From positions 193,988 through 257,987 of the forward strand of contig CAWBGG010000002.1 in the NCBI GenBank assembly GCA_963788205.1: a stretch of DNA of 64,000 bases. Reading direction: 5' to 3'. Positions 1-64,000 of this stretch are shown piece after piece. The notes under the pieces are model-generated. The model made no database searches, was not told the origin of the DNA, and worked only from the letters and a program-made list of their open reading frames with translations. The DNA is from an uncultured delta proteobacterium (GTDB lineage: Bacteria > Desulfobacterota > Binatia > Binatales > Binataceae). Position 1 is the first letter of the stretch; the number at the start of each line of letters is the position of its first letter. A program made the translations under genes and the position numbers.

Positions 1-568
1 GCGCTGCTCTGGCCGAACACCAGGTTCGCGGCCTGCCCAGCGGTGAGCCCGCTATTGAACGGCGCGGTGTACTCCAGCACGCGATTGTTGCAAGTGTCCG
101 CGACGTACAGATTGTCCGCCGAATCGACGGCGACCGCGCCCGACGCGCCCGTGGGCTTGAACGGCGGCGGATGGAATATGCATATCGACAGGCAGAGACC
201 CGCCGGACCGGTGACACACGCGTTCGTCGAGCCGCTGGGCTGGCCGATCACGAGGTCGGCTGGCTCGTCGGTCGTCAGTCCCGCCGCGCTGCGCCATCCG
301 AGCACGCGATTGTTGGCCGCGTCGGCGATATAGAGATGGCCCGCCGCGTCGACCACGGTGCCGGTGGCGTAGGTCAATGATCCGGGCGCCGGCGCAGTGG
401 AATTTAAGCTGTTGTGATTGAAATCCGGTTGACCCAGCACCACGTCGGCGGTGGTGTCGTCAGCGCTGCCGGGCGTTCCCGCAATCGCGAGCGCCGAGAG
501 CATGGCGCCGATCACGCAGGCCGCGATGAACCTGCCCGTCAGCCCATCGCGCAATCGCCGGCTCAGTT
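1..568 (-). CDS. NHL-repeat secreted protein (N-terminal part; gene continues beyond window start)
   Basis: Reverse-strand translation from ATG at 566-568 runs with no stop to position 1. It reads MFAELSRRLRDGLTGRFIAACVIGAMLSALAIAG (signal-like), then repeated LYIADAANNRVLGW / LYVADTCNNRVLEY blocks typical of NHL beta-propeller repeats. Absent from the ORF track because it is open at the window edge. Confidence 0.55.
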
Positions 569-1071
569 CCGCGAACATTTCCAGACCGCGCGCTTGCAGG
601 CTTGCCGGGACATTCTGACGAGGTTGGACGAAACGGGCAGCGCTATTATGCACCTCGGGGCGTATCTACCCGAGGATCACTCGGTAGCGGGTCTTGAGGA
701 ACTCGAATCGCGTGAGGGCTTTTGCTTTGGCAGGAGGACGGTCGGGGCGGTTCCTTTGGCAGGAGGGCTTCGGTTGGATTAGGCCGAAAGCACTCTGAAT
801 CGTCCCGACCACCTCTTTAGACTATCTGCCCGACGAAATATTCAAGGCTCTGTAATCGCGACGACTCTCCATCACCAACAGGCCTCGCGTCGCGAGGGTT
901 GAAATAGACCCTACACATTCTCAAATATCTCAAAACAATCTAAATGATTCTTCTTAGTCCGCCGATTAATCGATTTTTGGACGTTTTCAGGGCTCATTTT
1001 CGTCAGACTTTCGTCAGTGGCCCGACTGATTCCCGGCTTGCTGTCGAGATAGGTTCGGTTATGTTGGTGCG

Positions 1072-3201
1072 ATGCTGCCGGCCATATCCGGGATCCTGAG
1101 TGCGGTTGCCGGCCTCGGACTGATTGGAGGAGGGGGCTGGCTCGGGTACGTTATCGCGTCGCGGCTGATCCCTGCGGACTCGGCGACGGCAGCCCGGCTA
1201 TCCGCCGCTGCCGTTGTCGCATCGGCCGCCTTCTACGGCCTGTTCGCGATATTGCTGGCGGCGGGTCTGTTCGAGCTGCCGATCGCTCTGCCGGTGATTC
1301 TGGTCGGAGCTAGCGGCGCGTATCGATGGATCGGCGGCGAATCGTGGCGGCTCGCGCGTTCCGACTGCAGCCGGATTTGCGCGCTGATACGATCGTCAGT
1401 CAAAAATCCGGGCGCGATCCTGGTCGCGGCGTGCCTCGTGGTGGTCGCCTGCCGGATCATGCGCGGGATGGTGGCGCCGCCGCTGGCCTGGGACGCGCTT
1501 ACGTATCATCTGTTCAAGGCTGGGCGATGGGTCCAGCAAGGCGCCGATCTGATCCAGCCCGCGCCTGACGCGTGGGGCTACTACGAGTACTTTCCCAGCG
1601 CCGGCGACTCGTATTGGGCGTGGGCGATGCTGGCGGCGCGGGACGGGGCTTTTCTGGCGCCAGCCGCATTGCTGATTTGGGGCGGGATCGTATTGGCCGG
1701 CTATGCCTGCGCGCGGCATTGGGGCGCGCGCCGTGAGTACGCCATTTGGTGTGGTCTTGCGATCGCCATGACACCGGCGGTAGTGAACGCGATCACGGCC
1801 ACGTACGTGGACAACACCACGCTGATGTTCTTTCTGTTCGGAGTTCTTTTCACCTTCCGAGCGCTCGCTACCGGGGCCGCCGCTGACGCCGTGCTGAGTG
1901 GACTGGCGCTCGGCCTCGCCACCGACGTCAAGCTTCCGATGATGGCGATTCTGATGGTGGCGTGGCTCTTCCTGATTCAGCGAATCGCCGCGCAGATGGA
2001 AGCGGTGCTCGCGGCAATCTGCTTTTCCGCCGCGGGTGCGGCGTTGTTGCTGGTTGAATACGCGGGAGTCTGGCTCGATCGTGGACTTTTCTATCCGTTC
2101 GGACTGACGATACCCGCAATCGGCACGTGGCCCGGCAGCGAAGAAGCACAACTGCTCCATTCAGGGCGGTTGACGAGTCCGCTGCCTCATCCCAACCTCG
2201 TGCTGCTGCGCAGTCTCATCTGGCCGGGCTGGATGGCGGACTACCTTGGCCTCGGGCCGGTTGCGCCGATCCTGTTCCTGATTGGTGCGGCGGTTTGGAT
2301 CAAGCTCGCGCTCACCAGCGGCAGGAACCGGGCCGCGCTGTTGTTCGTGCCGGCCGCTGCGCTCCTGCTGTTCGCGGAGTTGATTTCCCCGGATATCGCT
2401 GCGCTGAGGACCTTCTGGCCGGGATTATTCGCGCGGTTCGTGATGCCGCTGTTCGCGCTGGTTGCGATCTTTGCTGCGGTGCCGCGCGGGATGCTGTGGC
2501 GGGCGATCTGGATGCTCGCCCTGCTGGTCGACGTTGCGCTCGCGATTCCACGGGCTTGGCGCGCGCTCGACATAAGCGCGGTACTGGCACTGGGCGCCCC
2601 GATGCTCGCCGGAATCGCAATCGCGGCGGCAATCCTGCTGCTGCTGCGAAGCCGCCTGCGCTTCCCGGCCGTCGCGGCGCTTGCGGCGCTGGCGATTCTC
2701 GTTCCAGTCGCGGCCGCGTTGCCCCGGTTGCGTGCGCGTTTGCGCTATCGCTTCTATGCGGCCGCGGCCAGCGACTCACCCGTCTACGATCTGCATCCGC
2801 TCCAGGCGGGATTAGCGAGGAGCTGGCGCGCGTGGCAATTCCTCGACGACGGTGCGCCCCATCGAGTTGGCGTCGCCGCAGGATGGGATCTGATCGGACA
2901 GAATTGGTATCTCTATCCGCTGCTTGGCAGTAGCTTGCAGAATCGGGTCTTTTACATTCCGATTACTGCGGACGGGAGCGTGATTGACTATCGGCGCTTC
3001 GCCGATCTGGCCCCGCGGGTTGATTTTCAAGCCTGGGTGGCAAGGCTCAAGCGCGAGCGAATCGAATACTTCGTCACGCTGGTGCCGCGTCCGCCGGAAC
3101 TTGGATGGATCAAGGACTCGCCGCAGTTGTTCACGCCGGTCTTGAGCAACGGCGCCTGGCAGACCACGGTGTGGGCCTTTCATCCCGCGCCAGCGCTCTG
3201 A
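1072..3201 (+). CDS. uncharacterised polytopic membrane protein (possible GT-C-type glycosyltransferase); paralog of 47102-49249
   Basis: 709-aa ORF with many hydrophobic helices. The MRGMVAPPLAWDALTYHLFKAGRWVQQG block and the C-terminal WYLYPLLGSSLQNRVFYIPITADGSV block are both shared with the 47102-49249 protein. Family not recognised. Confidence 0.6.
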   Translation: MLPAISGILSAVAGLGLIGGGGWLGYVIASRLIPADSATAARLSAAAVVASAAFYGLFAILLAAGLFELPIALPVILVGASGAYRWIGGESWRLARSDCSRICALIRSSVKNPGAILVAACLVVVACRIMRGMVAPPLAWDALTYHLFKAGRWVQQGADLIQPAPDAWGYYEYFPSAGDSYWAWAMLAARDGAFLAPAALLIWGGIVLAGYACARHWGARREYAIWCGLAIAMTPAVVNAITATYVDNTTLMFFLFGVLFTFRALATGAAADAVLSGLALGLATDVKLPMMAILMVAWLFLIQRIAAQMEAVLAAICFSAAGAALLLVEYAGVWLDRGLFYPFGLTIPAIGTWPGSEEAQLLHSGRLTSPLPHPNLVLLRSLIWPGWMADYLGLGPVAPILFLIGAAVWIKLALTSGRNRAALLFVPAAALLLFAELISPDIAALRTFWPGLFARFVMPLFALVAIFAAVPRGMLWRAIWMLALLVDVALAIPRAWRALDISAVLALGAPMLAGIAIAAAILLLLRSRLRFPAVAALAALAILVPVAAALPRLRARLRYRFYAAAASDSPVYDLHPLQAGLARSWRAWQFLDDGAPHRVGVAAGWDLIGQNWYLYPLLGSSLQNRVFYIPITADGSVIDYRRFADLAPRVDFQAWVARLKRERIEYFVTLVPRPPELGWIKDSPQLFTPVLSNGAWQTTVWAFHPAPAL

Positions 3202-3216
3202 ACGAGCGTCGCGGCT

Positions 3217-5562
3217 TCAGTGCGGAGGGCCGGGCCGGTTGATTTCCTTGATTAGCGCCTGAGCGTCGGCGTTTCCCGGAGCCAGGCGCGCGGCTTCGCG
3301 GGCAAGTTCGAGCGCTTCGCGGTCGCGGCCCATCTTGTGTAGCAGACGGGCGGCGGAAACTCGGCATAAGGTGTCGGTGGTTGGCGCGAGCATAATCGCA
3401 CGCTGATAGGCCGCCAAAGCTTCTTGATCGCGATTCTCGCTCGCGAGCAGAAAACCCAGCGCAACTTCAATCCGTCCCTCATTTGGATAGTTGGATGCCG
3501 CCCTTCGCAGGGTCTTTTCCGCGGCCTGGGTGTCGCCCGCGGCGAGCTCGACATTGGCGCGGGCGAGCTCGGCTGACGGTTCACCTTCCGGGAGCGACCC
3601 AGCCCGGTCGAGCGCCGCCTCGGCGTCGGCGCGGTCGCCCTGCGCGCTATAAAGACTCGCGAGCATAGCGTAACCAGTCCACGGGGGGGTCGTCATCAGT
3701 TGCAGTGCCCGGGAAATTTCGATCGCGCCTTCTTGCGCGTGGCCACGCCGCCAGTCGAGGACACCCATCCCATAGAGCGCGGCCGGGTTGTCGGGATCAA
3801 TGCGCAAGGCGTTGGAGAGATCCTGACCGACGGCATCAACACTGCCTTCCATCTTGTGAAGATTCGCCAACACCACGTACATATCGGCTGAAGGATGGCT
3901 CAGCTCGCCGACCGACTCGCTGATTTCCCCTGCCGCTTCGGCCGTGCGGCCCATCTGCGCGTGCACAAGCCCGAGGCTGTAAAGCGTTTCGACGTCGGCG
4001 GGCGCCAGACGATGCGCGGTTTGAAGCTCGCGTTCGGCGCCGACGTTGTCGCCCCGGCGCGAAAGCGCCGCCGCAAGCCCCGCGTGCCAGGTTGAGGACT
4101 CCGGAGACCGCGTCATACCGTGCATGCACAATACCTCGTCGTTGAGCCAGAAGTGCTGCACGTGCCAGAGCACCGCGACGTAACTGAGCGCCAGCGCCGC
4201 GGCCGCGATCGGCGCCAGGCGCGCGGCGCGCACCCATCGCGCAACGCTGTGAATCAAGTCGGCCAGCAGCACGCACGATCCGACCGAGCTCAGATAGAGA
4301 TACGAGTCGCAGACGATGTTGTCCTGCAGGCGCGAGCCTAGAGCCATGGTGGGAGCGATCGCGATTACGATCCAGGCGGCCCAAAACACCCGCGATCGGG
4401 CGCGCCCGCCTTTGCTCATGGCCAGCAGGGTGATGATCGCCAGTGCGATCAGGGCCAGCAACGGCAGGTAGAAATCCGCCGCCGCAGCGCTGCGAACGAT
4501 GGCTATCGGATGGACCGGGTCGGCGAGCCACGGAAGCGCGAGCAGCGCGAGGTCCCAACACAGCGCCTTCGGCACCGTCAGAAGGGCTTCCGCAGTGCTC
4601 AGGGTTGGTGCCGTCCAGCCCATCACCGAGCCGAGCACCAGCCGGCGCACGATCAGGTAGGCGGCCATCTCGCCGGCGAAGGGCGCCGCGCCAACGACGG
4701 CGCGCCAGACGCGCGACGCAAATGATGTTGCGCGGGGATCTTCGGCAGAGCCCGGCGATCCTGACAGGAATAAGTATGCGGCGATCAGAGCCGGAAACGA
4801 CACCGCCGACTCGTGAGACAGCAGCGCACCGGCATAGAGGAGCAACGCGGGCAGTCCGGGGCGCCATCGCGCGCCGCTCCGGCCGCTCACCAGATAAAAC
4901 GCCGCGAGCTCGAACGCCGCCGCCAGCACCAGTCCGCCGCCACCGCCGGGCCAGACCACCGATTCGGCGTTGATCGGGATGACGCCGAACAGCAGCGCGG
5001 TCACCAGCGCGGTACTCTGATCGCCGGTGACGCGCGCTGTCACCTTGAATACCAGCCAAATCACCAGCAGATGCAGCCCGATCATCGCTGCATGCCATCC
5101 GACCGGGTTCAGAGCGAAGAGGTGATAGTTCAGGCCGAACCAGGCCAGCAGCAGCGGCCGGTAGCGCGGCTTGTGCAAGCCGAACCACAAGAAGTCGCGA
5201 AAAAACGATTCACGGAAGAACGACCAACGCGCGATACGGGGGTTGTTGACGATCAATTGATCGTCATCCCAGACGAAGTCGTTGCCCAGGCAGCGCAGAT
5301 AGCCGAGCCCGGCGACCAGCATCACGCCGCCAAGCATCAGTCTGGCCCGCCATGGCGAGACCGCGTCGGCAGCCCTGGCCGCGGGCCCGACTTCAGCCCC
5401 GCGATAGCCGGATTGGGCGGAAAATTCGGCGCTGGGGAATCGCACCCGGGCCTGCGTATGGTTCAGGGGTGAGACTTCGGCGGCGGCTTCATCGGGAACG
5501 AAGACAGAACCGAGAAGTGCACCTTGCTTTGACTCCGGATGGAGTATTGGTAGCCCAGCCAC
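3217..5562 (-). CDS. TMTC-like membrane protein (DUF1736-type transmembrane domain + C-terminal TPR repeats), paralog 1 of 10
   Basis: 781-aa ORF. True start probably near 5337 (MLGGVMLVAGLGYLRCLGNDFVWDDDQLIVNN...). N-terminal multi-TM region carries the Y-L-R-x-L-G-N-x-F-V-x-D-D and YRPL/W..NY.LFG..P.GWH motifs; C-terminal half has repeated TPR-like A..Y..A......A units. Confidence 0.75.
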   Translation of the reverse strand: MAGLPILHPESKQGALLGSVFVPDEAAAEVSPLNHTQARVRFPSAEFSAQSGYRGAEVGPAARAADAVSPWRARLMLGGVMLVAGLGYLRCLGNDFVWDDDQLIVNNPRIARWSFFRESFFRDFLWFGLHKPRYRPLLLAWFGLNYHLFALNPVGWHAAMIGLHLLVIWLVFKVTARVTGDQSTALVTALLFGVIPINAESVVWPGGGGGLVLAAAFELAAFYLVSGRSGARWRPGLPALLLYAGALLSHESAVSFPALIAAYLFLSGSPGSAEDPRATSFASRVWRAVVGAAPFAGEMAAYLIVRRLVLGSVMGWTAPTLSTAEALLTVPKALCWDLALLALPWLADPVHPIAIVRSAAAADFYLPLLALIALAIITLLAMSKGGRARSRVFWAAWIVIAIAPTMALGSRLQDNIVCDSYLYLSSVGSCVLLADLIHSVARWVRAARLAPIAAAALALSYVAVLWHVQHFWLNDEVLCMHGMTRSPESSTWHAGLAAALSRRGDNVGAERELQTAHRLAPADVETLYSLGLVHAQMGRTAEAAGEISESVGELSHPSADMYVVLANLHKMEGSVDAVGQDLSNALRIDPDNPAALYGMGVLDWRRGHAQEGAIEISRALQLMTTPPWTGYAMLASLYSAQGDRADAEAALDRAGSLPEGEPSAELARANVELAAGDTQAAEKTLRRAASNYPNEGRIEVALGFLLASENRDQEALAAYQRAIMLAPTTDTLCRVSAARLLHKMGRDREALELAREAARLAPGNADAQALIKEINRPGPPH

Positions 5563-6162: not shown

Positions 6163-7476
6163 CTAGGCCGCACCCGAGCTTGCTACGGCGGCGGCAACCG
6201 CGGCCCTTGGCAAGCTGCGATCGGGTTTGCGGCAGCGCATGATCATCTCGCTGCGCGCAATGTACATCGTGTCCTCGACCTCGAAGCCATGGCGCTCGAG
6301 AATCTCCGCCAGGCTCTTGCGGGTGTAGTGCGTGATGTGTTCATCGCGGTAGCCACCGGGGACAAGGAATCCATATAACGGCTCGATAATACGCCATCCC
6401 AGGGTTGCGTAATCCGGTGTCCCGATAATCAGTGTCCCGCCCGGCTTCAGCACGCGGTCAATTTCGCTGAACAGGACTTCGTCGTAGGCCACATGCTCGA
6501 TAACTTCGGAATGGATCAGGCAATCGAAGGCCCGGTCCTTGAACGGCAACGCCATCGCCGAGCCCCGCGCCAGCGGTATTCCGCGCCGGCGCAGGAACCG
6601 CAGCTTGTCGAAGTTGATGTCCATGCCGATCGTGTTGTTGAGGCTCTGCACGATCACGCTCGAGCCGCATCCCACGTCGAGCGTGCGTCCGGTCGCCCGC
6701 GCCCAGAAGGTCGTAATCCGATGGCGCCTGCGCTGCCAGAAGCGCTGAAGAGGTATGGCGCTATAGAAGGCGCGTTCGTCGTAGTCGGCCGATTCGACCG
6801 AATTACGCAACCCCCAGAGCTTGGCCGCCGAGCGCATCAGGTCCCATCCGAAGCGCAGCACGCGGGCGTGCGAGCGGCCGCTGCCGCGCGGGAAGTAGGT
6901 GAAGGGCACTTCGATCACGTTGAAGCCGCGCGCGTAGGCCTTGACCAGCAACTCCTCCAGCACGTCGAAACTCCGACCTTCGAGCTTGATTCCCTCGATC
7001 GCCTGCCGGCGGTAGAGGCGAAACCCGCTCGAAAGGTCGCGCACCGGCATCGAGAGCAGCCGGCGCAACCCGCCGTTTAACAACTTGCTCAACGCGCTGC
7101 GCGTCCATGGGCCGTAGGAGGCGCCGCCGCGGACATAGCGCGAAGCGATCACGATGTCGGCCTGGTTGCGGGCCCGCCACATCCTGGTCACGAACTCGGG
7201 CTCGTGCGACTGGTCGGCGTCCAGCGTGAGAATGTAATCGCCGCGGGCTTCAGCAAGGCCGGTCTCGGTGGCGCCGGCGTAGCCGGGCCGGCGTTCGGGC
7301 ACCACCCGCGCGCCCAGCGCCGCTGCGGCGTCCTGGGTGCCGTCGCGCGAGCCGCCATCGATGACGATGATCTCGAAATTGATGCCCTCGCGGGCGAGCT
7401 GCGCGGCCAGCCGCGGGATGAGCGCGGTCAGGTTCTCGCGCTCATTGATAACCGGCAGGATTACCGAGAGATCCAT
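6163..7476 (-). CDS. bifunctional GT2 glycosyltransferase (polyprenyl-phosphate sugar synthase, DPM1-like) fused to C-terminal class I SAM-dependent methyltransferase
   Basis: N-terminal domain MDLSVILPVINERENL...IIVIDGGSRDGT...LTLDADQSH is a DPM-synthase-type GT2 signature (DxD-type motif). C-terminal domain LDVGCGSS...DCLIHSEVIEHV...LKPGGTLIIGTPDY is a SAM-MTase (motif I G-x-G-x-G, motif post-II). The ORF extends to 7590 but MDLSV at 7476 is the likely start. Confidence 0.75.
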   Translation of the reverse strand: MDLSVILPVINERENLTALIPRLAAQLAREGINFEIIVIDGGSRDGTQDAAAALGARVVPERRPGYAGATETGLAEARGDYILTLDADQSHEPEFVTRMWRARNQADIVIASRYVRGGASYGPWTRSALSKLLNGGLRRLLSMPVRDLSSGFRLYRRQAIEGIKLEGRSFDVLEELLVKAYARGFNVIEVPFTYFPRGSGRSHARVLRFGWDLMRSAAKLWGLRNSVESADYDERAFYSAIPLQRFWQRRRHRITTFWARATGRTLDVGCGSSVIVQSLNNTIGMDINFDKLRFLRRRGIPLARGSAMALPFKDRAFDCLIHSEVIEHVAYDEVLFSEIDRVLKPGGTLIIGTPDYATLGWRIIEPLYGFLVPGGYRDEHITHYTRKSLAEILERHGFEVEDTMYIARSEMIMRCRKPDRSLPRAAVAAAVASSGAA

Positions 7477-7647
7477 TGAAAATCCGGGTTTCGGTGCGGG
7501 CCCCAAGGCCGTGTGCGCCGCCATTGTATCGTGCGGTCGGCGAGGTTCAAGTGGGCCTATCATTAAGGCGCCGCCGCGGCCGCGCAACAATCATCAGCCG
7601 GTGCCGGAGATCGATACAATCTGTCGCAAAATCGGGCACTTGGACGG

Positions 7648-10186
<2,539 letters not shown>

Positions 10187-10228
10187 GGCAGAATCGTAGC
10201 TAAGTCACAGGGTATTTCATATGGCGCG

Positions 10229-11146: not shown

Positions 11147-13198
11147 TTGCCCATCGAGATCGCTTCAATGGCAACCAAGTCGGCAGCTCGGGTCAGGCAA
11201 GGACGCTCGTCGCAAGGGGGCTCGCCGCAAAGCCGCTCGACGGATGAGCCGGTCCGTCGCGCCGCACCAACGAGCCCGTGGTGGTGGGCCGCGGGTTTGG
11301 TGGTTCTCGCCGGATATGCAACCGCGCTGGCCTTGGCAACGCGGCCCGTGATGCTGGTCGACGACGCGGCCATAACCTTCCGCTATGCGGAACGCCTCGC
11401 AACCGGTAAGGGCTTCACCTACAACGATCACGAGCATGTGCTCGGCGCCAGCAACCCGCTGTACGTCCTCATTCTGGCCTCCTGCTCGATGGCTGGAATG
11501 GATATCGAGACCGCCGCGCGCGGACTCGGCATCGCGCTGTTTGCCGGCTCGGTCGTGCTCGCGGCCCTGATCGCCGCGCAGCTTGCCTCGTTGCCGGGCG
11601 GTCTGCTGGCGGGCGTGCTGCTGGCGTCCCATCCCTTTTTCCGCACGCTGGCGCTGTGCGGGATGGAATCCGGGCTGGCCGTCTTCCTGGGCCTGCTGGT
11701 GGTCTTGGCGCTGTCGTTGGATTGGCAGGTGCTTGCCGCGATAGTGCTCGGTCTGGCGGTATGGAACAAGCTCGACGCCGGGATGCTCGCGGTCGCGGTC
11801 GCCGTAGCGTGGCTCCTGGTCCGCCGCCGCCCGCCGCTGAAGATCGCTGCCATAGCCGCGCTGGTCGCGCTGCCCTGGTTCGGCTTCGCGCTATGGTACT
11901 TCGGCTCGCCGTTGCCGCGATCGATGATGGTCAAGCTGGCCAACAACACCGGCCTGCCGCCGGACCATCTGTGGATCGTTCGCGAAATTTTTACTTACCA
12001 GCAGGGTTTCGTTCCGCTGCTGATCCTCGGTGCGACGCTGGCGGCGCCGCGGGTGTGGCGAACGCTTGCGCCTGGGCAGCGGCTGGCGGCTGCCACGCTG
12101 GGCGGATGGTTCTTGTTACACGCGCTTGCGTTCTCGATGCTGTGGCTGGGCGACTATTACCATTGGTATCTCGCCGTGCTGTGTCCGCCGCCGATCATCC
12201 TGGGATGCGCGGCGGGCGTCAGGCTGCTGCGGCCGATCGCTGCGGCGGCGTGGAGCCGGCGTCTTATCGCGGCGGGCGCGGTCGCCTTGCTCCTGCTCGC
12301 CGTCGCGCCGCTAAAGCAGAGCTTTGCGCAACTCGGCAGGAATTCGACCGACAACTTCGAGATCTTCGATTTCGACCGCTGCATGGCCGGGCTGTTTCTC
12401 GCCCAGTATGCGAGCCCGTCGGAGGCGGTCGGGTCGAAATTCGGCTGGGTGGCGTACGAAATAGCAAATCCGTTCAATGATTTCTCGGGATTGAATAGTA
12501 TCAAGGCGCGGCTGCCTAATGAGTACTGGGTAATGCATGGGCAGCCGCCGTTCGAGGGCTTCAGCCGTCCGCTCGCGCCGCGCGGCTATATACCGCTGGC
12601 CACATTCAACCTTTTGAGTGATTTGGTGCCGGGCTCGAGCTGGTTTGAAGTATTCGGCAGACCCGATTCGATGGTGGCCCGCAGCGGCAAGCGCTGGCTT
12701 GCTTGGCGCCTGTTCGAGCTGCCGGCGCCCGATCCCGAACCGCCGGAATCGGGGCTGGGTCCCGCGGCGATAACCGGCAACGACCTGGACGCGAATCCGC
12801 CCAGCGGCGCCATCTTCACCGTCCAGAACGCGCATCAGCCGGTGCGGGTGGTGTTCATGCCCCTGGTGGGTGCGAACGATTCCGGCGGCGGCGCACTCTT
12901 CGAGCTCCGAGTGAACGGCCAACTCGCTTGGCAGTCGCGGGTTGATGCGGGCGATCGTCCGCAAATCGTCATAGCGCCGCTGCGCGGATCGGAGCTTCTC
13001 GACCGCTTCCAGCTCTCATTCATCACTCGGCCCGGCGGTGACGGCGGTCAACCGGCCGGCAGAGCGCAATGGCACGGCGTCAAAATCATGATTGGCGATG
13101 CGTACGTAGATATGGCGCGGCTGCGAGGCAATCCACTGGTGCCGCGATGGATTAGCTATAACGGCGCGCCGCCATCGGGAGAAACCGGCGCCCGGTGA
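11147..13198 (+). CDS. GT-C family membrane glycosyltransferase (ArnT/PMT-like) with C-terminal extracytoplasmic domain
   Basis: 683 aa. Multi-TM N-terminus containing LVDDAAITFRYAERLATGKGFTYN, which resembles the DExRYAE first-loop motif of ArnT/GT83 and GT39 enzymes. Followed by ~10 further TM helices and a ~250-aa soluble C-terminal domain. Confidence 0.6.
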   Translation: MPIEIASMATKSAARVRQGRSSQGGSPQSRSTDEPVRRAAPTSPWWWAAGLVVLAGYATALALATRPVMLVDDAAITFRYAERLATGKGFTYNDHEHVLGASNPLYVLILASCSMAGMDIETAARGLGIALFAGSVVLAALIAAQLASLPGGLLAGVLLASHPFFRTLALCGMESGLAVFLGLLVVLALSLDWQVLAAIVLGLAVWNKLDAGMLAVAVAVAWLLVRRRPPLKIAAIAALVALPWFGFALWYFGSPLPRSMMVKLANNTGLPPDHLWIVREIFTYQQGFVPLLILGATLAAPRVWRTLAPGQRLAAATLGGWFLLHALAFSMLWLGDYYHWYLAVLCPPPIILGCAAGVRLLRPIAAAAWSRRLIAAGAVALLLLAVAPLKQSFAQLGRNSTDNFEIFDFDRCMAGLFLAQYASPSEAVGSKFGWVAYEIANPFNDFSGLNSIKARLPNEYWVMHGQPPFEGFSRPLAPRGYIPLATFNLLSDLVPGSSWFEVFGRPDSMVARSGKRWLAWRLFELPAPDPEPPESGLGPAAITGNDLDANPPSGAIFTVQNAHQPVRVVFMPLVGANDSGGGALFELRVNGQLAWQSRVDAGDRPQIVIAPLRGSELLDRFQLSFITRPGGDGGQPAGRAQWHGVKIMIGDAYVDMARLRGNPLVPRWISYNGAPPSGETGAR

Positions 13199-14280: not shown

Positions 14281-14492
14281 CCCGTCGCACTCCCGTTTCT
14301 GAAAATCCGTCCTCCTCAGCATCACAGCGTGATGAATTCTATGCAGACGGGCCTGATATTGCTAGCGCTGATCTCTTGCGGCGCGCGGGAGAATCCGTCA
14401 GGGCAGGGTAAAACGCGCGCGGGGGGCGAGCGCGAAGCCGGGAAGCGGCCTGCCGACCATCGCTGCCCGGACGCCGCGGCCGGAAATCGGTC

Positions 14493-23162: not shown

Positions 23163-23166
23163 CGCG

Positions 23167-50197: not shown

Positions 50198-51109
50198 CTA
50201 GATGTAGAGAATTATAATGTCAGCCGCGACCCACAGCACGACCGACATCAGCAGGGTGCGATCTTTCAGGAGCAGCCGCGAGGGCTCACCGCCTTCACGC
50301 TTCTCGACCACCAGGTACAGGTAGCGCAGGATGCCGAGCACCACGAAGGGCACGGTAAGGTACAGATAGCCGGTACCGAGTTTGCGTTCGACGTCGGGTG
50401 AGGCGGTGTAGATCATGTAGCCCACCAGGGTCGCGGAGGCGGCGATCGATATCATCTGGTCGATGAGCCGGACGCTGTAATGGTCCAGCGCGCTGCGATG
50501 AGACGACGCCGCTACGCCCAGCGCGATCAGCTCATGGCGCCGGCGGGCCAGCGCGAGCAGCAGCGCGAGCACGAAGGTGATGAAGATCAGCCAGGGAGAA
50601 ACTTCGACGTGAATCGCCAGTCCGCCGGCAAAAGCGCGCATCACGAAGCCGATCGCGATTGTGATGACGTTGACGATCACGATGTGCTTGAGCCGCAGCG
50701 AGTAGGCAAACTGGAGCGCCACATAAGCGACCGCGAGGCACGCGAAGCCGGGCCCCAGCGCGAGGCTGAGCACGCCCCCGACCACCCCGAGCATGCATGC
50801 CATCACGATCGCGTCGGGCACGCTCAGCTCGCCGCTGGCGATCGGGCGGTTGCGCTTCTCGGGATGCTTGCCGTCGGTCTCGCGATCAGAGATGTCGTTT
50901 ACGATGTAGCCCAGGCTCGAGACCGCGCAGAACGCAACCAGTGCCATCACGGTGCGCAGATCGTCGCCCAGGTGAAAGAGCCGCTGGCTGAAGATCAGAG
51001 CCGCGAAAATTATCGCGTTCTTCAACCATTGATGGGGGCGGGCAACCTTCCACATCGCCCGCCATCGGGCCGTCCGGACCGGGGGTTCTCTATCTTCGGC
51101 GAGATTCAC
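50198..51109 (-). CDS. UbiA-family prenyltransferase, decaprenyl-phosphate phosphoribosyltransferase-like (DPPR synthase homolog)
   Basis: 303 aa. ...ARPHQWLKNAIIFAALIFS...GYIVNDISDRETDGKHPEKRNRPIASGELS... (NDxxDxxxD Asp-rich motif of the UbiA superfamily, in the context typical of Rv3806c-type 5-phosphoribosyl transferases), 8-9 TM helices. Confidence 0.75.
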   Translation of the reverse strand: MNLAEDREPPVRTARWRAMWKVARPHQWLKNAIIFAALIFSQRLFHLGDDLRTVMALVAFCAVSSLGYIVNDISDRETDGKHPEKRNRPIASGELSVPDAIVMACMLGVVGGVLSLALGPGFACLAVAYVALQFAYSLRLKHIVIVNVITIAIGFVMRAFAGGLAIHVEVSPWLIFITFVLALLLALARRRHELIALGVAASSHRSALDHYSVRLIDQMISIAASATLVGYMIYTASPDVERKLGTGYLYLTVPFVVLGILRYLYLVVEKREGGEPSRLLLKDRTLLMSVVLWVAADIIILYI

Positions 51110-53859: not shown

Positions 53860-55788
53860 ATGACACGACACCCGAGAGTGTGGTTTGGGCTCGCAACGGT
53901 CGCGTGTATTCTTTTTTTGGTAATCTTTTACCCGTCGCAACGCGCCGATAATTCAGTTTCGCCGCGCGTGGCGAACGCCAAGCGGATCAGCTCCAGCTCA
54001 TCGGGGCAACTCGGGAAGGCGCCTGCGGCCAACACCGCGGTCGTCAGCGCGCGTCTCAACCAGAGCTACGATCAACTCGGCTTGGGCTTCGAGCCCAACG
54101 TAGGTCAGGCCGACGGCCGGGTGAGATTTCGCGCCCGCGCCGAGGGTCTGTCCATTTCGTTCACGCAGGACGCGGCCCGGATTCTGCTCAGCCGTGCTCC
54201 ATCCCCGGCCCAAGCCGCGCGGACGCTTCCAATTGGCGACGGTGTAACCGCAAGCAATTCGAAGCATGACTCAAAATCAGGGGTTCTGCGGCCTGCGGAC
54301 AACCTGGCCCTGACGATGAGACTCGAAGGCGCGAACAAAGATGCGAAAATCGAGGGCGTAGACAGGCTTCCCGGCGTGACCAACTATTTCGTCGGCAGTG
54401 ATCCCCGCAATTGGCACTCCGGCATCCCGACGTATTCCAAGGTGAGATACAAAGGCGTCTACCCCGGCGTCGATCTGGTCTACTACGGCAACCATCGCGA
54501 ATTGGAATGCGACTGGGTAGTCAAGCCCGGCGCACGTCCGGACAGCATAAGGCTCGCTTTCGACGGCGCCAGCCGGATTGACATCAACGGCGATGGCGAT
54601 CTGGTACTGGGCACGCCACGCGGGCAAATCCTGCTGCGCAAACCGGTTGCCTACCAGGAATCGGGCGGCAAGAAGCGGCCGATCTCCAGCCGCTATACTC
54701 GTCTGTCCGGCGCGCGCGTCGGCATCGAGCTGGCTGCTTACGATCGTGACCAGCCGTTGGTTATCGACCCGACGCTGAGCTACTCGACTTACCTGGGCGG
54801 CTCGTTCCTCGATTTCGCGAGCGGACTGGCGGCCGACGCAGTCGGCGATGCCTACGTGACCGGAACCGCCTGCTCGGCGGATTTTCCGATTACCCCAAAA
54901 CCGAACATCGTGCAGGCCACTTATGGTGGAAGTTGCGATGTGTTCGTAGCCAAGGTCAATCCGACCGGGACCGCGTTTGTGTATTCTACCTACCTCGGCG
55001 GTCCCAGCGCCGACAGTGGCAACGCGATCGCGGTCGATCAGTCCGGCGCTGCTTACATAACCGGATACGCGGGCTCCGGCTTTCCGCTTACGCCAGCGGG
55101 CGGTTCGGTCGCGCAGCCGAATTTCGGCGGCGGAACTTCGGACGCGTTCGTGGCCAAGATCAGTCCGGATGGCTCGACGTTGTTGTATTCCACCTACCTG
55201 GGTGGCAGCGGAGTCGACGAGGGCGAAGCGATCGCAATTCCCTCGGGATGCGCGGCGAACTGCGACGCGTTCGTCACCGGATATACCGAGTCTTTGGACT
55301 TTCCAGTTGCTGCGGCGCCCAACCTGACCCCCTTCCAGACGGCCAACGGTTGTACCAGCGGCGGCGCGCCTTGTATCGATAAAAACGACGCGTTCGTGGC
55401 GAGGCTGAATTCTTCGGGTAGTGTCTTCAAGTACGCCACCTACCTGGGTGGACACAGCGGCGACGGCGGATTCGCGATCGCAGCTGACGCGCAAGGCAAC
55501 GCCTATGTCGGCGGCATAACCGACGCGATCCTCATTCCGGCCTTCTCACAGAATTTCCCGATCACACCCGCGACCGCGGTGCAGAACACCTTCGGCCAAG
55601 CCGCCGCCACCGGTTTCATCGCAGTACTCAATCCGACCGGCACCGGGCCGCTGTTGTACTCGACCTACCTGGGCGGAACGGGCTTTCAGGCCATCAATGG
55701 TCTGGAGTCTGGGGCCGGATACTTTTGTGCTGACCCCCAATCTCAGCGTGAACAGCATCTATGTCGCGGGCTATGCCTACTCGAATGA
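53860..55788 (+). CDS. giant secreted beta-propeller/BNR protein, N-terminal portion (reading frame broken at ~55711-55714; continues in 55697-58498)
   Basis: Signal peptide [29 protein letters not shown]. Repeated units of the form YSTYLGG-x-x-D-x-G-x-AIAVD--GNAYVTGYT-S-DFP-T (SBBP-type beta-propeller repeats) at least 6 times. The ORF ends in a stop-free GC-rich shadow frame after ...[20 protein letters not shown]. Confidence 0.65.
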
Positions 55789-58498
55789 TTTCCCGACTAC
55801 TGCCGGCGCCTACCAGGTGGCTTTCGGCGGCTTCGATGACGAGTTCGTCGTGCACCTGGTACCGCAGAACAACCCGACCCTCCCTGGCGTGCCGTATTAC
55901 ACGATCGCTTATTCCACCTACCTGGGCGGCACCGGCGATGACAACGGCGGATTAATCGCGATCGACGCGACCTGCGGCGTGGTGGGTTGTGATACCTATA
56001 TTGCCGGCACCACCAATTACACCGATTTTCCGGCGGTGAATTCGTTTCCTCTGCCCGCGCCCAACGGCGAATTGCTGGTCAGCACCGACAACGGCGCGAG
56101 CTTCGGCTTCACCGGCAATCTCGGCAGCATCGGCTCACTCAATGCGCTGGTGGTCGATCCAAGCACCACACCCCATACCATCTTCGCCGGCAGCGCGCGC
56201 AAGGGCCTGTACCTGAGCACCGATGATGGCCACACCTTCGGACCCACCGTGCTTTCGCAGGCGCAGTATGCGACCGGGTTTAATGGTATCGCGATCGACT
56301 ACTCGCCCGGCACCGGCGTGTGCGCCGGCAGCAACGAAAGAGTATTCGTCGGCAATGGGCAGGGGCTGTACCGCAGCACCGATCGGGGCGTGTCGTTCGC
56401 TCAGACCGCACTCAACGGCTTCCCGGTCTCGCCGGTATTCGTCGATAGCAACGCGGAGCCGCCCGCCATCTACGTGGGAACCAAGACTCCGGGCAACCCT
56501 CCGCAGTTTCAACTGCTGAGGAGCGCCGATTGCGCCAACACCTTCGACCCCACCGGGCTTCCGAGCGGCGCCTTCGCCTTTTCGTTGGCTTCTGATCCGA
56601 ACCATAACCCTGAAGCGGTCTATGTCGGCACCAATCGCGGTGTCTTCGTCAGCAGTGTCGGGGGCATACAGTTCACCCAGACCGGAGAGAATTTTCAGCC
56701 TGCGTTCTCAGTGGCGGTCGACTCCAGTGTGAAAAATCCGGCTCCGCCGGGAAGTACCAGTCCCAACTCCAACCTGTACGCGGGCGCTCAAGTCGGACTG
56801 CTCGAAAGCACCGACGGGTTCGCTACGGTCACCGGTCCGGTCAACACAGTCAGCCTCGCCCTCTATGACGTGAAGGTTGATGCTTCGTCCTCCCCTTCGC
56901 ATATCTATGCGGCGGGCAAGCTCAACGATCTGGGCTTTCTGCTGCAAAGCACCGACGGCGGCACGACCTTCAGGGAGATCGGCCCGGCCACGGCCTACCT
57001 GCCGCCGACGACCAGGATCGGTTTGGATCCAGGAGTGACTACCGGAATTGGCTCGGTTACGGGAATCTTTATCAGCCCGTTCCTGGAATATAACGCCACC
57101 GTCGCCAAGCTGAGCGGAGACGGATCGACCCTGATCTTCTCCACGCTGCTGGGTCCATTGAGCGGAGCAGCGAACGATGGCTTCGCCGGCGGCGTAGCGA
57201 CCGACACCCTCGCCGCAACCGGCATCAATCTGGTCTATGTAGCGGGCGGGACCGCCTCGAGTAATTTTCCAGTCGTACCGGCTCCGCCGGCGGTACCGTC
57301 TGCCGCGCAGCCGGCGCTGGCAGGTTCGCTCAACGCGTACGTGCTCCAGATCGGGCTCAACTTTCCAACCCCGACCCCAACCCCAAGCCCGACCCCAACG
57401 CCGACGCCGACCCCTACGCCCACGCCTTCGGAGAGCCCGTCCGCGACGCCGTCGCCAACGCCGAGCGCGAGTCCGACCGCGGCACCGACCTCGTCGGCTA
57501 CCACAACCCCGTCGCCCACCCCAGGTCCGACGGTCACCCCCAGCGGACCCACGCAAACACCTAGCCCCTCACCGACTCCGGTAGGGCCCACTCAGACTCC
57601 GATCAGCGCGACGGCCACGGTCACTCCGACTCCGAGTGGGCCAACTCAGACTCCGATTAGCGCGACGGCCACGGTCACTCCGACTCCGATTGGACCGACG
57701 GCAAGTCCAAGCGGTCCCACCCAGACCCCGGCGCCAACTACTGCAACTGCGACTCCGGTGGCCACCGCTTCGCCTGGCATCGATACTGTGGCGGTTACTC
57801 CGGTGTCGATTACCGCCTCTCCGGGTGCGACGCCGGTGGTCGGGACCTTCTCGGTCACCAGCCCCAGCACAAACTGTCAGCAGAGCCTGACGGACGCGTT
57901 CGTGCTCTTCGGCGACGCGTCATTGTTCACTTCGTCGACGCTGACGGCAACGATCAACGGCGCCAGCGAGACCTCCACGCAGGTTCCGTCTTCGACCGGC
58001 AACACCGACTACAGCTTCAGCCCGCCGATCATCATCCCGCCCGGCGGCACCGTCGACTTCAGCTTGCAGGTCACGATCGCGGCCAACCCAAGCGCGTCGC
58101 TGGCTATGGCCAACCCGCCGCGGCTGGTGCTCGCCGGGATGATCCCGGTTCCCAAGGCGGGCGGGCAGATGGCCGGCCCGATGATGGTATGGCTGGGATG
58201 CCTGGGGATACTCGGCTTGGTAGTGCCGCTCTCGTCGCCGCGCCGCAAACGAGTGCTGATGGCGAGCGCGATGCTGATACTGGTCGCCGCGACGGTGTCG
58301 TGCGACCTGCCCAAGAGCAGCGGTCCATCCAAGCCGTCGAAGACCTCGGCGCCGACCTCGGCTCCAACGCAGAAGCCGACCCCCACGCCGCTGTCTTCCG
58401 ATCAGACCCTGGAAGGGTTCGCGGCCACCGACTGTGTCGGTATGGTAACGTTCACACCTGAAGTGCAAGATTTGGGAACGGTCACGATCAGCAAGTAG
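55697..58498 (+). CDS. giant secreted beta-propeller/BNR protein, C-terminal portion with BNR/Asp-box repeats, Pro/Thr/Ser-rich linker and C-terminal hydrophobic segment
   Basis: Continuation ...[35 protein letters not shown] (same SBBP repeat). Then Asp-box-like [41 protein letters not shown]. Then ~140 aa of [14 protein letters not shown]...[18 protein letters not shown]... Ends with hydrophobic [24 protein letters not shown] and a [15 protein letters not shown] lipobox-like segment. Confidence 0.65.
57358..57790 (+). repeat. low-complexity Pro/Thr/Ser-rich linker-coding region inside the giant secreted protein gene
   Basis: ccgaccccaaccccaagcccgaccccaacgccgacgccgacccctacgccc... encodes [77 protein letters not shown]... 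Confidence 0.7.
57585..57692 (+). repeat. perfect-register 54-nt tandem repeat x2 (encodes [19 protein letters not shown])
   Basis: gggcccactcagactccgatcagcgcgacggccacggtcactccgactccgagt followed immediately by gggccaactcagactccgattagcgcgacggccacggtcactccgactccgatt (4 mismatches in 54). Confidence 0.8.
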
Positions 58499-58650
58499 CA
58501 ATCAGTCCTGGAATCAGAACGCGGCGGCACGCTCCCGACAGGGATGTGCCGCCGCGCGCATTTCCAGACCACCGCACGAATCCTTTACCTCCCCGCGCTG
58601 AGAGAGCCCTCCCGTGATGATGCGCGAGCGGCGCATCGGCGCGGGAGCCG

Positions 58651-60663
58651 CTAATGCGGCTTGGCGCTCTGTTCGATTTCCGTTATCAGCGCCAGCGTGC
58701 GCGAATCATTGGGCGAAGCGGCCAGCGCGAGGTAGCATTCGTCGAGCGCCTCGCGATTACGGTTCATCGCATGAAGCACCTCGGCGGAGAGAAAATGCGG
58801 CATCGGGGCGTCGGGTGTAAGCTTGACCGCCGCTTGGTACGCGGCTAGCGCTTCGGGGTTGCGTCCTTGTGCGGCGAGCGCCCGCCCCAGCGCGGTCCAC
58901 ACGAGGTAGTCATCGGGATGGCTGCGCGCCATCTCGCGCAACATCGCCTCGGCGCCGGCGGCGTCACCATGGGATACTTTTATCTGCGCCCGCGTGAGTC
59001 CGGCGGCCTCGGCGCCGCCCGGCATCGATTCGGCATACGCCAGTTCCGCATCGCGGCGCGCGTCGTCGTGGTTCAAGTCGTAGACCTGCGCCAGCAGCAG
59101 ATGGTTCTCGGCGGCGGGATGCGGCAGATGCCTGATGCCGGCGGCAAGCTCGGCGGCGCCGTCGGCGAGCCGGCCCATCCGCAGGTGCAGAAGTCCGAGA
59201 TCATACAGCGTAAAGGGCGCGTTGGGATCAAGGCTCAGCGAGGTCGCGAGCTGCTGCGCCGCCGCGGATAGCTCGCCGCGTTGCTCGAGCGCACTGGCGA
59301 GCCGGTTGTGCCACATCGCGGCATCGGGACAGCGCGCGATACAGGCGATCGAGAGCGCTTCGTCGTCGTGCCAGAATCCCTGCGCCCGCCAGAGCGCTCC
59401 CGCATACAGGGCCGCCATTGCGATCGCGGCACTCACCGCAAGCCGGCGCGAGGTGGCGCCACGCCGCGCGAGGCGAAACCCGCCGTCGGCAAGTATCACA
59501 CACCATCCCAGCGATGACAGGTAGAGATAACGATCCTGCACCAGCGCCTGCTCAAAGAGCCCGCGCAGATTCATCATCGGCGCGACCGCGACTACCATCC
59601 AGGCGGCGCAAAACAAGTAGAGCCGCCCGCGCCGGTCGCGTCTGGCAATCGCGAACAGGATCGCGCCGCAGGCGGCCAGCGCGGCGAGCGGCAGATAGAA
59701 GCCGGGCGCGCCGAGGCTCCCGACGATCGGCACCTGATGGGCCGGGCCGGCCAGCCACGGCATCACCAGCAGCGCCACGTAGGTCATCACCACGCGCGGC
59801 GCAGTCGCGATCGCCTGCGTGCCGGTCAAATGGGTCAGAGCGTTGGGGCGATTGATGAAACCGAGCACCAGCCGGCGCACAGTCAGATAGGCCAGGGTCT
59901 CGGCCGCGAACGGCGCCGAACTGACGATCGCGGTCCGTACTCGCCGCGCGCGCGGTGAAACGACTTGTCCGGGCTCGATCAGCAGGACGTACAATCCGAT
60001 CAGCGCCGGAAATGCGACCGCGCTCTCGTGGGTCAGAAGGGCGCAGGCGTAGAGCAGTATCGCGAGCGTCCAGTTGCGACGCTCGGCTCCGCCGCGCGCG
60101 ATGAAGAGATAGAACGCTCCCAGTTCGAGCGTGGCGCTGAGCGGCAGCGGGATCGCGGTGGCCCACACCACCGCCTCAGCGTGCACCGGCAGCAGGCCGA
60201 AGAGTAACGCGGCCGCCAGCGCCGGCTGTGTCCCGCCGGTGAGCCGGGCCGCGATCTCGAACACCAGCCATACCGCGGCCAGATGCAAACCGACCATAGT
60301 CGCGTGCCATCCGGCGACGTGGGGTCCGAACAGATGGTAATGCAGGCCGAGCCAGATATCCTGGAGCGGCCGATAGTATGCGCTCGCCGGCAAATGGAGC
60401 GGATCCATGAACCACCATGAATCACGCGTCAGCGACTTCCAGAGGAACGACCACTGCCCGATCTGCCGGTTGGCGATCACCATGTCGTGGTCGTCGAAAA
60501 CGAAGCCGTTGCCTAGGCATCGCAGATAGACCAACGCCGTGGCGAGCAGCACGCCTGTGATCATCAAGGTTCGGCGGCGCGCGTCCTCGCGGGCATTGGC
60601 AGCGCGGCCAGCGACGCGACTTCGACCAGGTGCGCCCGCTTTGACCGGCAGCCCGCGCTTCAT
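58651..60663 (-). CDS. TMTC-like membrane protein (DUF1736 + TPR), paralog 8
   Basis: Start chosen at MKRGLPVKAG (ATG 60663-60661, forming an ATGA overlap with the stop of the upstream paralog); the ORF extends to 60765. ...LVYLRCLGNGFVFDDHDMVIANRQIGQWSF...YRPLQDIWLGLHYHLFGPHVAGWHATMVGLHLAAVWLVFE...LLTHESAVAFPALIGLYVLL... + TPRs. Confidence 0.75.
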   Translation of the reverse strand: MKRGLPVKAGAPGRSRVAGRAANAREDARRRTLMITGVLLATALVYLRCLGNGFVFDDHDMVIANRQIGQWSFLWKSLTRDSWWFMDPLHLPASAYYRPLQDIWLGLHYHLFGPHVAGWHATMVGLHLAAVWLVFEIAARLTGGTQPALAAALLFGLLPVHAEAVVWATAIPLPLSATLELGAFYLFIARGGAERRNWTLAILLYACALLTHESAVAFPALIGLYVLLIEPGQVVSPRARRVRTAIVSSAPFAAETLAYLTVRRLVLGFINRPNALTHLTGTQAIATAPRVVMTYVALLVMPWLAGPAHQVPIVGSLGAPGFYLPLAALAACGAILFAIARRDRRGRLYLFCAAWMVVAVAPMMNLRGLFEQALVQDRYLYLSSLGWCVILADGGFRLARRGATSRRLAVSAAIAMAALYAGALWRAQGFWHDDEALSIACIARCPDAAMWHNRLASALEQRGELSAAAQQLATSLSLDPNAPFTLYDLGLLHLRMGRLADGAAELAAGIRHLPHPAAENHLLLAQVYDLNHDDARRDAELAYAESMPGGAEAAGLTRAQIKVSHGDAAGAEAMLREMARSHPDDYLVWTALGRALAAQGRNPEALAAYQAAVKLTPDAPMPHFLSAEVLHAMNRNREALDECYLALAASPNDSRTLALITEIEQSAKPH

Positions 60664-62741
60664 CGCGCACCCGCAGATTGTCCCGAGTGCGCCTCGCGCT
60701 GGATGGTGGCGATCAGCGCCTGCGCGTTGCGGTCGTTGGGCGCGATCGCCAGTGCGGCGCGGCATTGCGTAAGCGCCTCCTGATCGCGCCCCAACTTGTG
60801 CAGCGCCAGGCCCGTCATCACGCGCGCGAATGGATCACGGGGCGACAGCGCCTGCGCTCGCAGGAAGCAGTCCAGCGCTTGCTGGTGGTTCTTCTCCCTG
60901 ATCGCGGTCATCCCCAGCATCGTCCACGCGCGCGGATCGTTTGGATCGTTCGCGGTGAGGTCGCGCAAAATCGCTTCCGCGCCCGGCAGATCGCCGTGAT
61001 TATATTTCAACTGCGCACGCGCCAGCGCCGCGACGTGCGCGCCGCCCGGCAGCGACTCGGCCTGCTTGAGCGCCGCCTCGGACTTGGCCTGGTCGCCAGT
61101 CAGATCGTAAACCTGGGCCAGGCCGACGTAGGCGTCGGCAGGCGGACTGGCAAGCCGCTTGAGCCCCTCCTCCTGTTCGGCTGCGGCCTGCTTGATATGG
61201 CCGAGCTGGGAATCGACTACGCCCAGGTCGTAGAGCGCGGCGCTCTGGGGATCGAGCTCTAGCGCGGCCTTGAACTCGCGCTGCGCGCCCGCCAGATCGC
61301 TGCGGTCTCTTAATGCCACGCCCAACCCGTAATAGCCGTCCACCTGGTCCGGGCTTTTTTCGATCAGCGCGGCATAGAAGGCCTCGTTGTCGCGCCAGGA
61401 ATACTGAACCTGCCAGAGCACGGCTGTGCAGACGATCAGGAACGCGGCGGTGGCGGCCCACACGATGCGCCTTATTATTTTGGATCGGTCCGCAAGACTT
61501 ACCGCAAAGTCCGCAACCATCAAGCACCATCCGACCGACGCGAAGTAGAGATAGCGGTCCTGCACAAACGCTCGATCGAAAAAGAGTCGAAGATTCACGA
61601 CCGGCGCCATCGCCACCGCTATCCATGCTGCAAAGAATAGGTAGCGGCGGCGATGGGGATGGTTGCGCACGGCGGCCGCAAACGCGGCGGCCAGCACGAG
61701 CACGATCGCAACCGGACCCCAGAAGTGCGGCGATGACGCGCTGGATACCGTCAGCATCGCGCGGCGAGGGCCGGCCAGCCACGGCATCGCGAGCAGCGCG
61801 ATGTATCCAACGATCACCCGCGGGAGGGTCAGGATCGTCAGCGCTGGCGTCAGGTGGGTGATCCACCCCGGCTGATGAAACAGAAACCCCAGCGACAACC
61901 TGCGAGCGATCAGATATCCGATCGCATCGCCCACAAACGGCACGGCGCAAATCAGGCTGCGGCGCAAGCGGGCGAGAATAGTATCGAGCTTGCCCTCCCA
62001 ACTCGCGGGCGCGCCGAGCGGCTCGATCAAAAATACGTAGAGGGCTATCAGGGCCGGGAAGAGCACGGCCGCTTCGTGAGTCAGGAGCGCGGCCGTGTAG
62101 AACAGTAGCGCGGGAAGCCAGCGCGTGGTGCTGGTGGATCGTGTGATGAAGAAATAAAACGCCGCGAGTTCGAGCACACCGCTCAGCGACATGTCAACCC
62201 CGGGCTCCCAGGCCACAGCCTCGGCGTGGAGGGGAATCAGCCCGAAGAGCAGGGCCGCCAAAGCCGCGATGCGGACGTCATCCGCCACCTGCATCGCGAT
62301 CTTGAACACGAACCAGACGCCGACCAGATGCAACAGCACGAGGCTCAAGTGCCAGGGCATGGGGTTGAGACCGAACAGATGAAACTGTATCGCAAGCCAA
62401 ATGTCCTGCAGCGGCCGGTAATACGAACTCTGCGGCAGATGCGCGGGATCGCGATACCAATACGGATCGCTCAGCAGCGATCTCCAGATGAACGACCACT
62501 GGCCGATGAGGCGGTTGCCGACGATCATGTCGAGATCGTCGAGGGAAAAGCGATTGCCCAGGCTTCTCAAATAGGCGCAGAAGGTGACCAACAGCACCCC
62601 ACCCGCTATGGCAGACTCGCGCCATCCACCGAAACCGGCGCTGACGCCTGCCGCGCTTGCGGGCGCAGGAGCCTTGATCGAAACGACCCGCCTCATCAGA
62701 CCGCTAACATTCGGGCGTTTCGCTGCCGCCGGCGCGGCCAA
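60660..62741 (-). CDS. TMTC-like membrane protein (DUF1736 + TPR), paralog 9
   Basis: 693 aa. ...FCAYLRSLGNRFSLDDLDMIVGNRLIGQWSF...YRPLQDIWLAIQFHLFGLNPMPWHLSLVLLHLVGVWFVFK...LLTHEAAVLFPALIALYVFL... + TPRs (...YYGLGVALRDRSDLAGAQREFKAALELDP...). Confidence 0.75.
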   Translation of the reverse strand: MAAPAAAKRPNVSGLMRRVVSIKAPAPASAAGVSAGFGGWRESAIAGGVLLVTFCAYLRSLGNRFSLDDLDMIVGNRLIGQWSFIWRSLLSDPYWYRDPAHLPQSSYYRPLQDIWLAIQFHLFGLNPMPWHLSLVLLHLVGVWFVFKIAMQVADDVRIAALAALLFGLIPLHAEAVAWEPGVDMSLSGVLELAAFYFFITRSTSTTRWLPALLFYTAALLTHEAAVLFPALIALYVFLIEPLGAPASWEGKLDTILARLRRSLICAVPFVGDAIGYLIARRLSLGFLFHQPGWITHLTPALTILTLPRVIVGYIALLAMPWLAGPRRAMLTVSSASSPHFWGPVAIVLVLAAAFAAAVRNHPHRRRYLFFAAWIAVAMAPVVNLRLFFDRAFVQDRYLYFASVGWCLMVADFAVSLADRSKIIRRIVWAATAAFLIVCTAVLWQVQYSWRDNEAFYAALIEKSPDQVDGYYGLGVALRDRSDLAGAQREFKAALELDPQSAALYDLGVVDSQLGHIKQAAAEQEEGLKRLASPPADAYVGLAQVYDLTGDQAKSEAALKQAESLPGGAHVAALARAQLKYNHGDLPGAEAILRDLTANDPNDPRAWTMLGMTAIREKNHQQALDCFLRAQALSPRDPFARVMTGLALHKLGRDQEALTQCRAALAIAPNDRNAQALIATIQREAHSGQSAGAR

Positions 62742-62781
62742 AATTTCGTGAGCGCCCCTCGCGTTCCGGACCTGCGGCGCT

Positions 62782-64000
62782 TCACCTCACTACAATCCTG
62801 TAGGCTATGCTGCCGTCCGGATAACGGATCACTACCTTGGGCGGAGCCGGAACGACGTCATCACCGGTGAAAACAAAAATGCCGTGGGGAAACACCCGCA
62901 CCAACGCGCCGGCGGCATTTTTCGCTATCGCCTCGTAAACCACGAAGGGGGAAACAAAGTAGTGCCGGCCGAAGCTTTTGATCACTTGACCCCTGAACCA
63001 CGCCCCCTTTACGTCAGCCGCGGTCTGAAACCATTTCGGAGGATACTGTTCGAAGACCAACATGTAGATATAGGCCTCGCTTATTCTCGGCGTGACAACC
63101 AGAACCTCCTTGCCGTCGTCGAGCCGCTTGATCTGCCTGGCAACTTCTCCCGCTCCATACTGAAAATATGGCGCCGACATCATTACGTAGTCGCCGAAAT
63201 ATGTTTTGCAAAACCGCGCGCTATGGAATATCACACCGGCCAGCAGCAGCGCCGCTGCGGCGCTCATGAGTAATACTCTTTTACGCAGCAACTCGAGCAG
63301 CGCGACAAATCCCAGCGCCGACACCAGGGTCCACGGCGCCATCGCCAGGGCGTCGTGCCGGGAGTCGGGGTGTGACATAAGCACTGCCGGCGACAAATCA
63401 GGGTTAACCGCGACGCGTGAGTAATCGCACAAAATAGACGCCGTAGGAATGTCAGTCTTTTCGAGCGCGAACGCTCCCAGCGGCACGGTGAGCATCGCCG
63501 GCAGCGCCGCGCATATCAGCCAGCCGAAAGTGAGTAGCGCAAACTTGCGGCGCCGGACGTTGAAAAAGGCCAGCGCTGCCAGCAATATCAAAGGCGCTTG
63601 TTCGGGCAGAAGCTGCCCGAAACCGGCCGGATGGAGCATCGTCCAATGGTCGCCCCGGTCACCGCGAAAAAACAGGAACGACGGTGTGAAATAGCTTATG
63701 AAGTTGGCGCCGAGGCTCTCGAGCCGCGCGCCCTTTGTTCCCAAGATCGAAATCACGCTGAAACGCTGCTGCATTTCAGGGTGCTTCCAGATTAAGATCG
63801 CCTGCGGCAAGGCCAGCAAGGCCACAATGGCCAACGCCAGCAGTGCGGTGCGCCTGTGGCCGTTAAGTTCGCGCCAGTAGGTCAGGATCAGCACCCCGAT
63901 CATGGGTGGCAAAAATGCCTTCACTATCGCGTAGCTATACAGCGATACGCCGAAGATTATTGCACTTAGTAGAAGCCATCGGTCCCGCCGCCACTTGAGC
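62782..64000 (-). CDS. GT39/PMT-like GT-C glycosyltransferase, C-terminal part (gene continues beyond window end); paralog of 21414-23162
   Basis: Reverse-strand frame open to the window edge. ...LALAIVALLALPQAILIWKHPEMQQRFSVISILG... is colinear with the 21414 protein (...LGLVALMAVPQAVLILRHPELQARFHILYLFD...), and the C-terminal VFTGDDVVPAPPKVVIRYPDGSIAYRIVVR matches VYPGIEVLPAPAAITVRYPDGRLAFSIIVK. Confidence 0.6.
   Translation of the reverse strand, partial: LKWRRDRWLLLSAIIFGVSLYSYAIVKAFLPPMIGVLILTYWRELNGHRRTALLALAIVALLALPQAILIWKHPEMQQRFSVISILGTKGARLESLGANFISYFTPSFLFFRGDRGDHWTMLHPAGFGQLLPEQAPLILLAALAFFNVRRRKFALLTFGWLICAALPAMLTVPLGAFALEKTDIPTASILCDYSRVAVNPDLSPAVLMSHPDSRHDALAMAPWTLVSALGFVALLELLRKRVLLMSAAAALLLAGVIFHSARFCKTYFGDYVMMSAPYFQYGAGEVARQIKRLDDGKEVLVVTPRISEAYIYMLVFEQYPPKWFQTAADVKGAWFRGQVIKSFGRHYFVSPFVVYEAIAKNAAGALVRVFPHGIFVFTGDDVVPAPPKVVIRYPDGSIAYRIVVR

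Follow-up and report, generated by a model that had tools for sequence, protein, structure and literature searches.

TMTC enzymes, which join a GT-C domain to TPRs, glycosylate proteins (PMC7801869). P. aeruginosa TfpW (646 aa) has a DDx motif, 11 TM helices and a TPR domain on the periplasmic side; its D-Araf donor is synthesized via a UbiA-type homolog of Rv3806c (bioRxiv 10.1101/2020.04.19.049825). Both GT-C/TPR types studied experimentally act on proteins (PMC7801869; bioRxiv 10.1101/2020.04.19.049825), and three-component pentofuranose systems are a direct precedent for the locus described here (PMC11127046).

We analyzed a 64 kb stretch of DNA (the window) from an uncultured soil Binataceae bacterium, the genome of which is a metagenome assembly [Table 1]. 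Nine of its loci (family A) carry an N-terminal polytopic domain and a C-terminal TPR region, and share with TfpW the GT-C domain, a first external loop bearing a DD motif, and the C-terminal TPR; a UbiA-type gene, as in the TfpW donor pathway, is present in the window too. An earlier note on this sequence had counted ten TMTC-like genes; the GT-C/TPR architecture and some motifs are indeed alike, whereas the loci number nine and the DUF1736 signature is missing (0 of 9). Mycobacterial arabinan is a further precedent. The window belongs to an already known type of system, of which it is an uncommonly large expansion, rather than to a new one; what is undescribed so far is its scale and its combination of families. 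The earlier statement that this is not a described bacterial system was too strong, as TfpW and the three-component pentofuranose systems precede it.

Table 1. Features of the window, with strand and principal evidence.
Position	Strand	Feature	Evidence
1072-3201	+	Family B1, 709 aa, ~15 predicted TM helices, candidate GT-C	43% identity to 47102-49249
3217-5562	-	Family A, 781 aa	TPR Pfam matches; 37-42% identity to other members; DD, YRP, E, D motifs kept
6163-7590	-	GT2 (DPMS/ArnC-like) with C-terminal SAM methyltransferase, no predicted TM helix	Pfam, PDB relatives
7648-8598	-	Fcl-like epimerase/reductase (GDP-L-fucose synthase-like)	Epimerase E 6e-59; NCBIfam GDPFucSynFcl
8633-10186	-	N-terminal SAM methyltransferase fused to GT2 (DPMS/ArnC-like)	Pfam, PDB relatives
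11147-13198	+	Polytopic, 683 aa, candidate GT-C, PMT_2/GT87 clan	Homolog matches
13231-14325	-	Periplasmic DsbA/thioredoxin-like with SurA_N-like domain	Thioredoxin_4 E 3e-29, DSBA, SurA_N_3
14493-15728	-	M48-family peptidase-like	Peptidase_M48 E 8e-8
15820-17954	-	Family A, split over two frames (17196-17954 + 15820-17238)	SDD, YRP, SHESA, DRYLY motifs
18183-19979	+	598 aa, ~9 predicted TM helices, putative GT-C	Motif after TM1 only
19887-20999	-	Sulfotransferase	Sulfotransfer_1 E 2.5e-12; Sulfotransfer_3 E 2.6e-11
21414-23162	-	Family D1, 582 aa, PMT_2-like candidate GT-C	PMT_2 sub-threshold; 'HQDEA' after TM1
23167-25467	-	Polytopic, 766 aa, weakly YfhO-like	YfhO E 1.4e-4, PgfM1 E 3.5e-3
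25510-27528	-	Family A, 672 aa	Pfam, paralog identity, motifs; same sequence as P0033 of the 1.34-Mb source contig
27879-30242	+	Family A, 787 aa	Pfam, paralog identity, motifs
30291-31559	-	Acyl_transf_3 membrane O-acyltransferase	E 1.7e-29
31774-33763	+	Family A, split over two frames (31774-32868 + 32375-33763)	FVYDD, YRP motifs
33798-35816	-	Family A, 672 aa	TPR matches; PMT_2 E 1e-4; paralog identity, motifs
35941-37554	+	PMT_2/PMT-family GT-C, 537 aa	Pfam above cut-offs; 'PDEE' after TM1
37866-41795	+	ORF of 1309 aa: orphan polytopic N-half, family C GT-C C-half	
42080-44209	+	Family C, 709 aa, Pfam-less GT-C with C-terminal periplasmic alpha/beta domain	
44206-45423	-	Second Acyl_transf_3 gene, frameshifted	Pfam at N-terminus only; GC3 0.50
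45485-47014	-	Polytopic, 509 aa, candidate GT-C, PMT_2 clan	Homolog matches
47102-49249	-	Family B2, 715 aa, polytopic candidate GT-C	PMT_2 E 2e-4, sub-threshold
49289-50038	-	Secreted or anchored 249-aa protein adjoining UbiA	Position conserved
50198-51109	-	UbiA-type polyprenyl-phosphate phosphoribosyltransferase (DPPR synthase)	UbiA E 6e-30; NCBIfam NF008977
51256-53355	-	Family A, 699 aa	Pfam, paralogs, motifs; 72-73% identical orthologs in L001 and L069
53860-58498	+	Giant secreted protein, ~1545 aa read as single gene	DUF7948 E 2e-62, SBBP
58651-60765	-	Family A, 704 aa; structure modelled for this member	
60660-62741	-	Family A, 693 aa (678 aa in source annotation)	Pfam, paralog identity, motifs
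62782-64000	-	Family D2, truncated by window end	49% identity to 21414-23162 residues 175-582

Candidate GT-C genes

From an ORF-by-ORF check, candidate GT-C loci make up 20 of ~34 genes and 65% of the bases, so the dense cluster claimed earlier stands, with its count of more than 20 of ~35 genes corrected. Families A and C (11 loci) have the GT-C fold and one gene (35941-37554) is supported at the Pfam level; the remaining eight, more weakly supported by sub-threshold, transitive or motif-level sequence signals, are candidate members. The membrane proteins that could be tested are of GT-C type, and none was placed in a transporter family, the placement that the earlier note had named as refuting its reading. 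Within family A, pairwise identity is 33-48% and PMT_2 matches are sub-threshold at best. The DD and YRP motifs occur in all nine loci, and across 79 homologs D92 and P133 are invariant while D91, Y131, R132 and E247 are conserved in at least 90%. These residues correspond to TMTC motifs M1, M2 and M4 (PMC7801869); motif M5 (DW) is not evident in family A, and the M7 arginine is retained in only 4 of 7 paralogs.

The large paralog pairs reported earlier were recovered. Residues 586-1289 of 37866-41795, a single gene in the source annotation, are 84% identical to 42080-44209; homologs of the N-terminal half of this ORF are absent from the window and from 70 loci compared. The gene at 1072-3201 itself matches nothing in Pfam or NCBIfam and is taken as a candidate GT-C because of its paralog at 47102-49249 and a weak PMT_2 match of the L070 ortholog; the L070 ortholog of 47102-49249 (81% identity) likewise has a weak PMT_2 match. 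Among the PMT-like genes previously listed, 35941-37554 exceeds the Pfam cut-offs (PMT_2 35.3 bits against 26.1; PMT 29.6 against 22.7), whereas 21414-23162 stays below (PMT_2 E 2.8e-4, 21.5 bits against 26.1, profile positions 3-155 of 160); 62782-64000 is a paralog of the latter, with an alignment reaching base 63999. The supposed YfhO gene (23167-25467) retains a match under the cut-off over its C-terminal 40 residues only. Although 11147-13198 has no direct Pfam match, 12 of its 42 homologs match PMT_2 and 8 match GT87, and D72-D73 after TM1 is invariant. For 45485-47014, PMT_2 is matched by 8 of 53 homologs (best E 5e-7), and P78-P79 is invariant inside 'HSQPPL'. No match was found for 18183-19979 in Pfam, NCBIfam or PDB sequences, and its motif after TM1 ('GGDALL...NPSVGAPFG'), which may be YfhO-like, is the only hint.

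Donor synthesis

The two GT2 domains, each fused to a methyltransferase as noted earlier, fall by sequence in the DPMS/ArnC/GtrB branch of polyprenyl-phosphate-sugar synthases. For 6163-7590 (Glycos_transf_2 E 4e-30; Methyltransf_11 E 3e-17), the closest solved structure is 5mlz, the Dol-P-Man synthase of P. furiosus (E 3.5e-31), then ArnC and GtrB, and the top NCBIfam matches (AglJ, ArnC, Dol-P-hexose transferase) are each under cut-off; for 8633-10186 it is again 5mlz (E 1.7e-15), with ArnC next. Processive synthases, raised earlier as a possibility to be checked, were rejected in view of these relatives. Unlike GtrB, ArnC and archaeal DPMS, the window fusions have no predicted TM helices, and the L069 ortholog of 8633-10186 is a GT2 domain on its own with a separate methyltransferase nearby. 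Flanked by the two fusions, the presumed GDP-fucose synthase (7648-8598) proved Fcl-like over its full length (E 2e-87, 293 bits against GDPFucSynFcl), under the 500-bit equivalog cut-off. There is no Gmd in the window; in one relative, a Gmd-like 389-aa gene of the GDP_Man_Dehyd family lies ~440 bp from the Fcl ortholog. The UbiA-type assignment holds, at 275.5 bits against NF008977 (decaprenyl-phosphate phosphoribosyltransferase; cut-off 234), and this protein has no fused phosphatase domain.

On the cytoplasmic side, the GT2 enzymes would transfer nucleotide sugars to polyprenyl phosphate, the UbiA-type enzyme would convert PRPP to polyprenyl-phospho-ribose-5-phosphate, and the Fcl-like enzyme could act as a GDP-6-deoxyhexose reductase in donor synthesis. 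By Pfam scan, the window lacks a flippase, a polyprenyl-P-ribose-5-P phosphatase and DprE1/DprE2, so the pentofuranose branch is incomplete within it. Since Pfam matches to Wzx/Wzy, an initiating phosphoglycosyltransferase or an ABC transporter are likewise absent across the whole window, a monosaccharide-donor pathway fits and an en-bloc one does not.

Acceptors, decoration and conservation

We lean slightly towards stepwise periplasmic glycosylation from polyprenyl-phosphate monosaccharides by this cluster, probably of secreted proteins, in keeping with the protein O-glycosylation suggested earlier. The donors, once flipped, would be used by ~20 GT-C enzymes to transfer sugars one at a time, and the family A TPR domain would most likely select protein acceptors. 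An envelope polysaccharide or glycan as acceptor, in place of secreted proteins, fits equally many facts, and TPR domains also serve as polysaccharide-export scaffolds (BcsC, PgaA, AlgK); TMTC and TfpW, the GT-C/TPR types studied so far, both glycosylate proteins. Under the protein-acceptor reading, the prime candidate would be the giant beta-propeller protein (53860-58498), through its Pro/Thr/Ser linker. Its family A neighbours are retained beside it in two relatives, where UbiA lies a short way past one of these neighbours. This protein, recognized earlier, comprises a signal anchor, DUF7948, SBBP beta-propeller repeats and a sortilin/BNR-like region, followed by the linker (~135 residues; P/T/S at 35 of 40 at peak), an Ig-like domain and, lastly, a TM helix with a tail behind it; orthologs in L001 and L069 conserve the linker. 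Families B, C and D and the PMT_2-like and YfhO-like proteins may lengthen or diversify the glycans, the two Acyl_transf_3 proteins may acylate them, and the sulfotransferase may contribute further decoration; Pfam bears out these last three assignments of the earlier note.

As to synteny, a core module (family B, the 250-aa protein, UbiA, family A, the giant protein and family A) is found again, with identities of 57-85%, in two further genomes, whereas the full supercluster does not recur and is not conserved beyond close relatives. The protein at 49289-50038, which has no Pfam match, has orthologs of 75-76% identity in the equivalent position beside UbiA in L001 and L070. Across 65 Binatia genomes, the family C orthologs lie in unrelated contexts, as do UbiA homologs of ~60% identity. 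The term 'island' is not supported in a mobile sense, the window having even composition, no tRNA gene and no Pfam mobility protein. An assembly artefact was rejected as the origin of the cluster because the paralogs are diverged and synteny is seen in other genomes.

Four apparent frameshifts, three at short homopolymer runs, were located by tblastn: between 17274 and 17214 in 15820-17954 (intact paralog as query), at 32379-32387 in 31774-33763 (within 'TTTCCCGGG'), at 45118-45131 in 44206-45423 (beside a CCCCC run) and at 55713-55724 in 53860-58498. These look like long-read errors; if real, part of the cluster would be decaying. The best explanation is that the supercluster is functional and confined to one Binataceae lineage.

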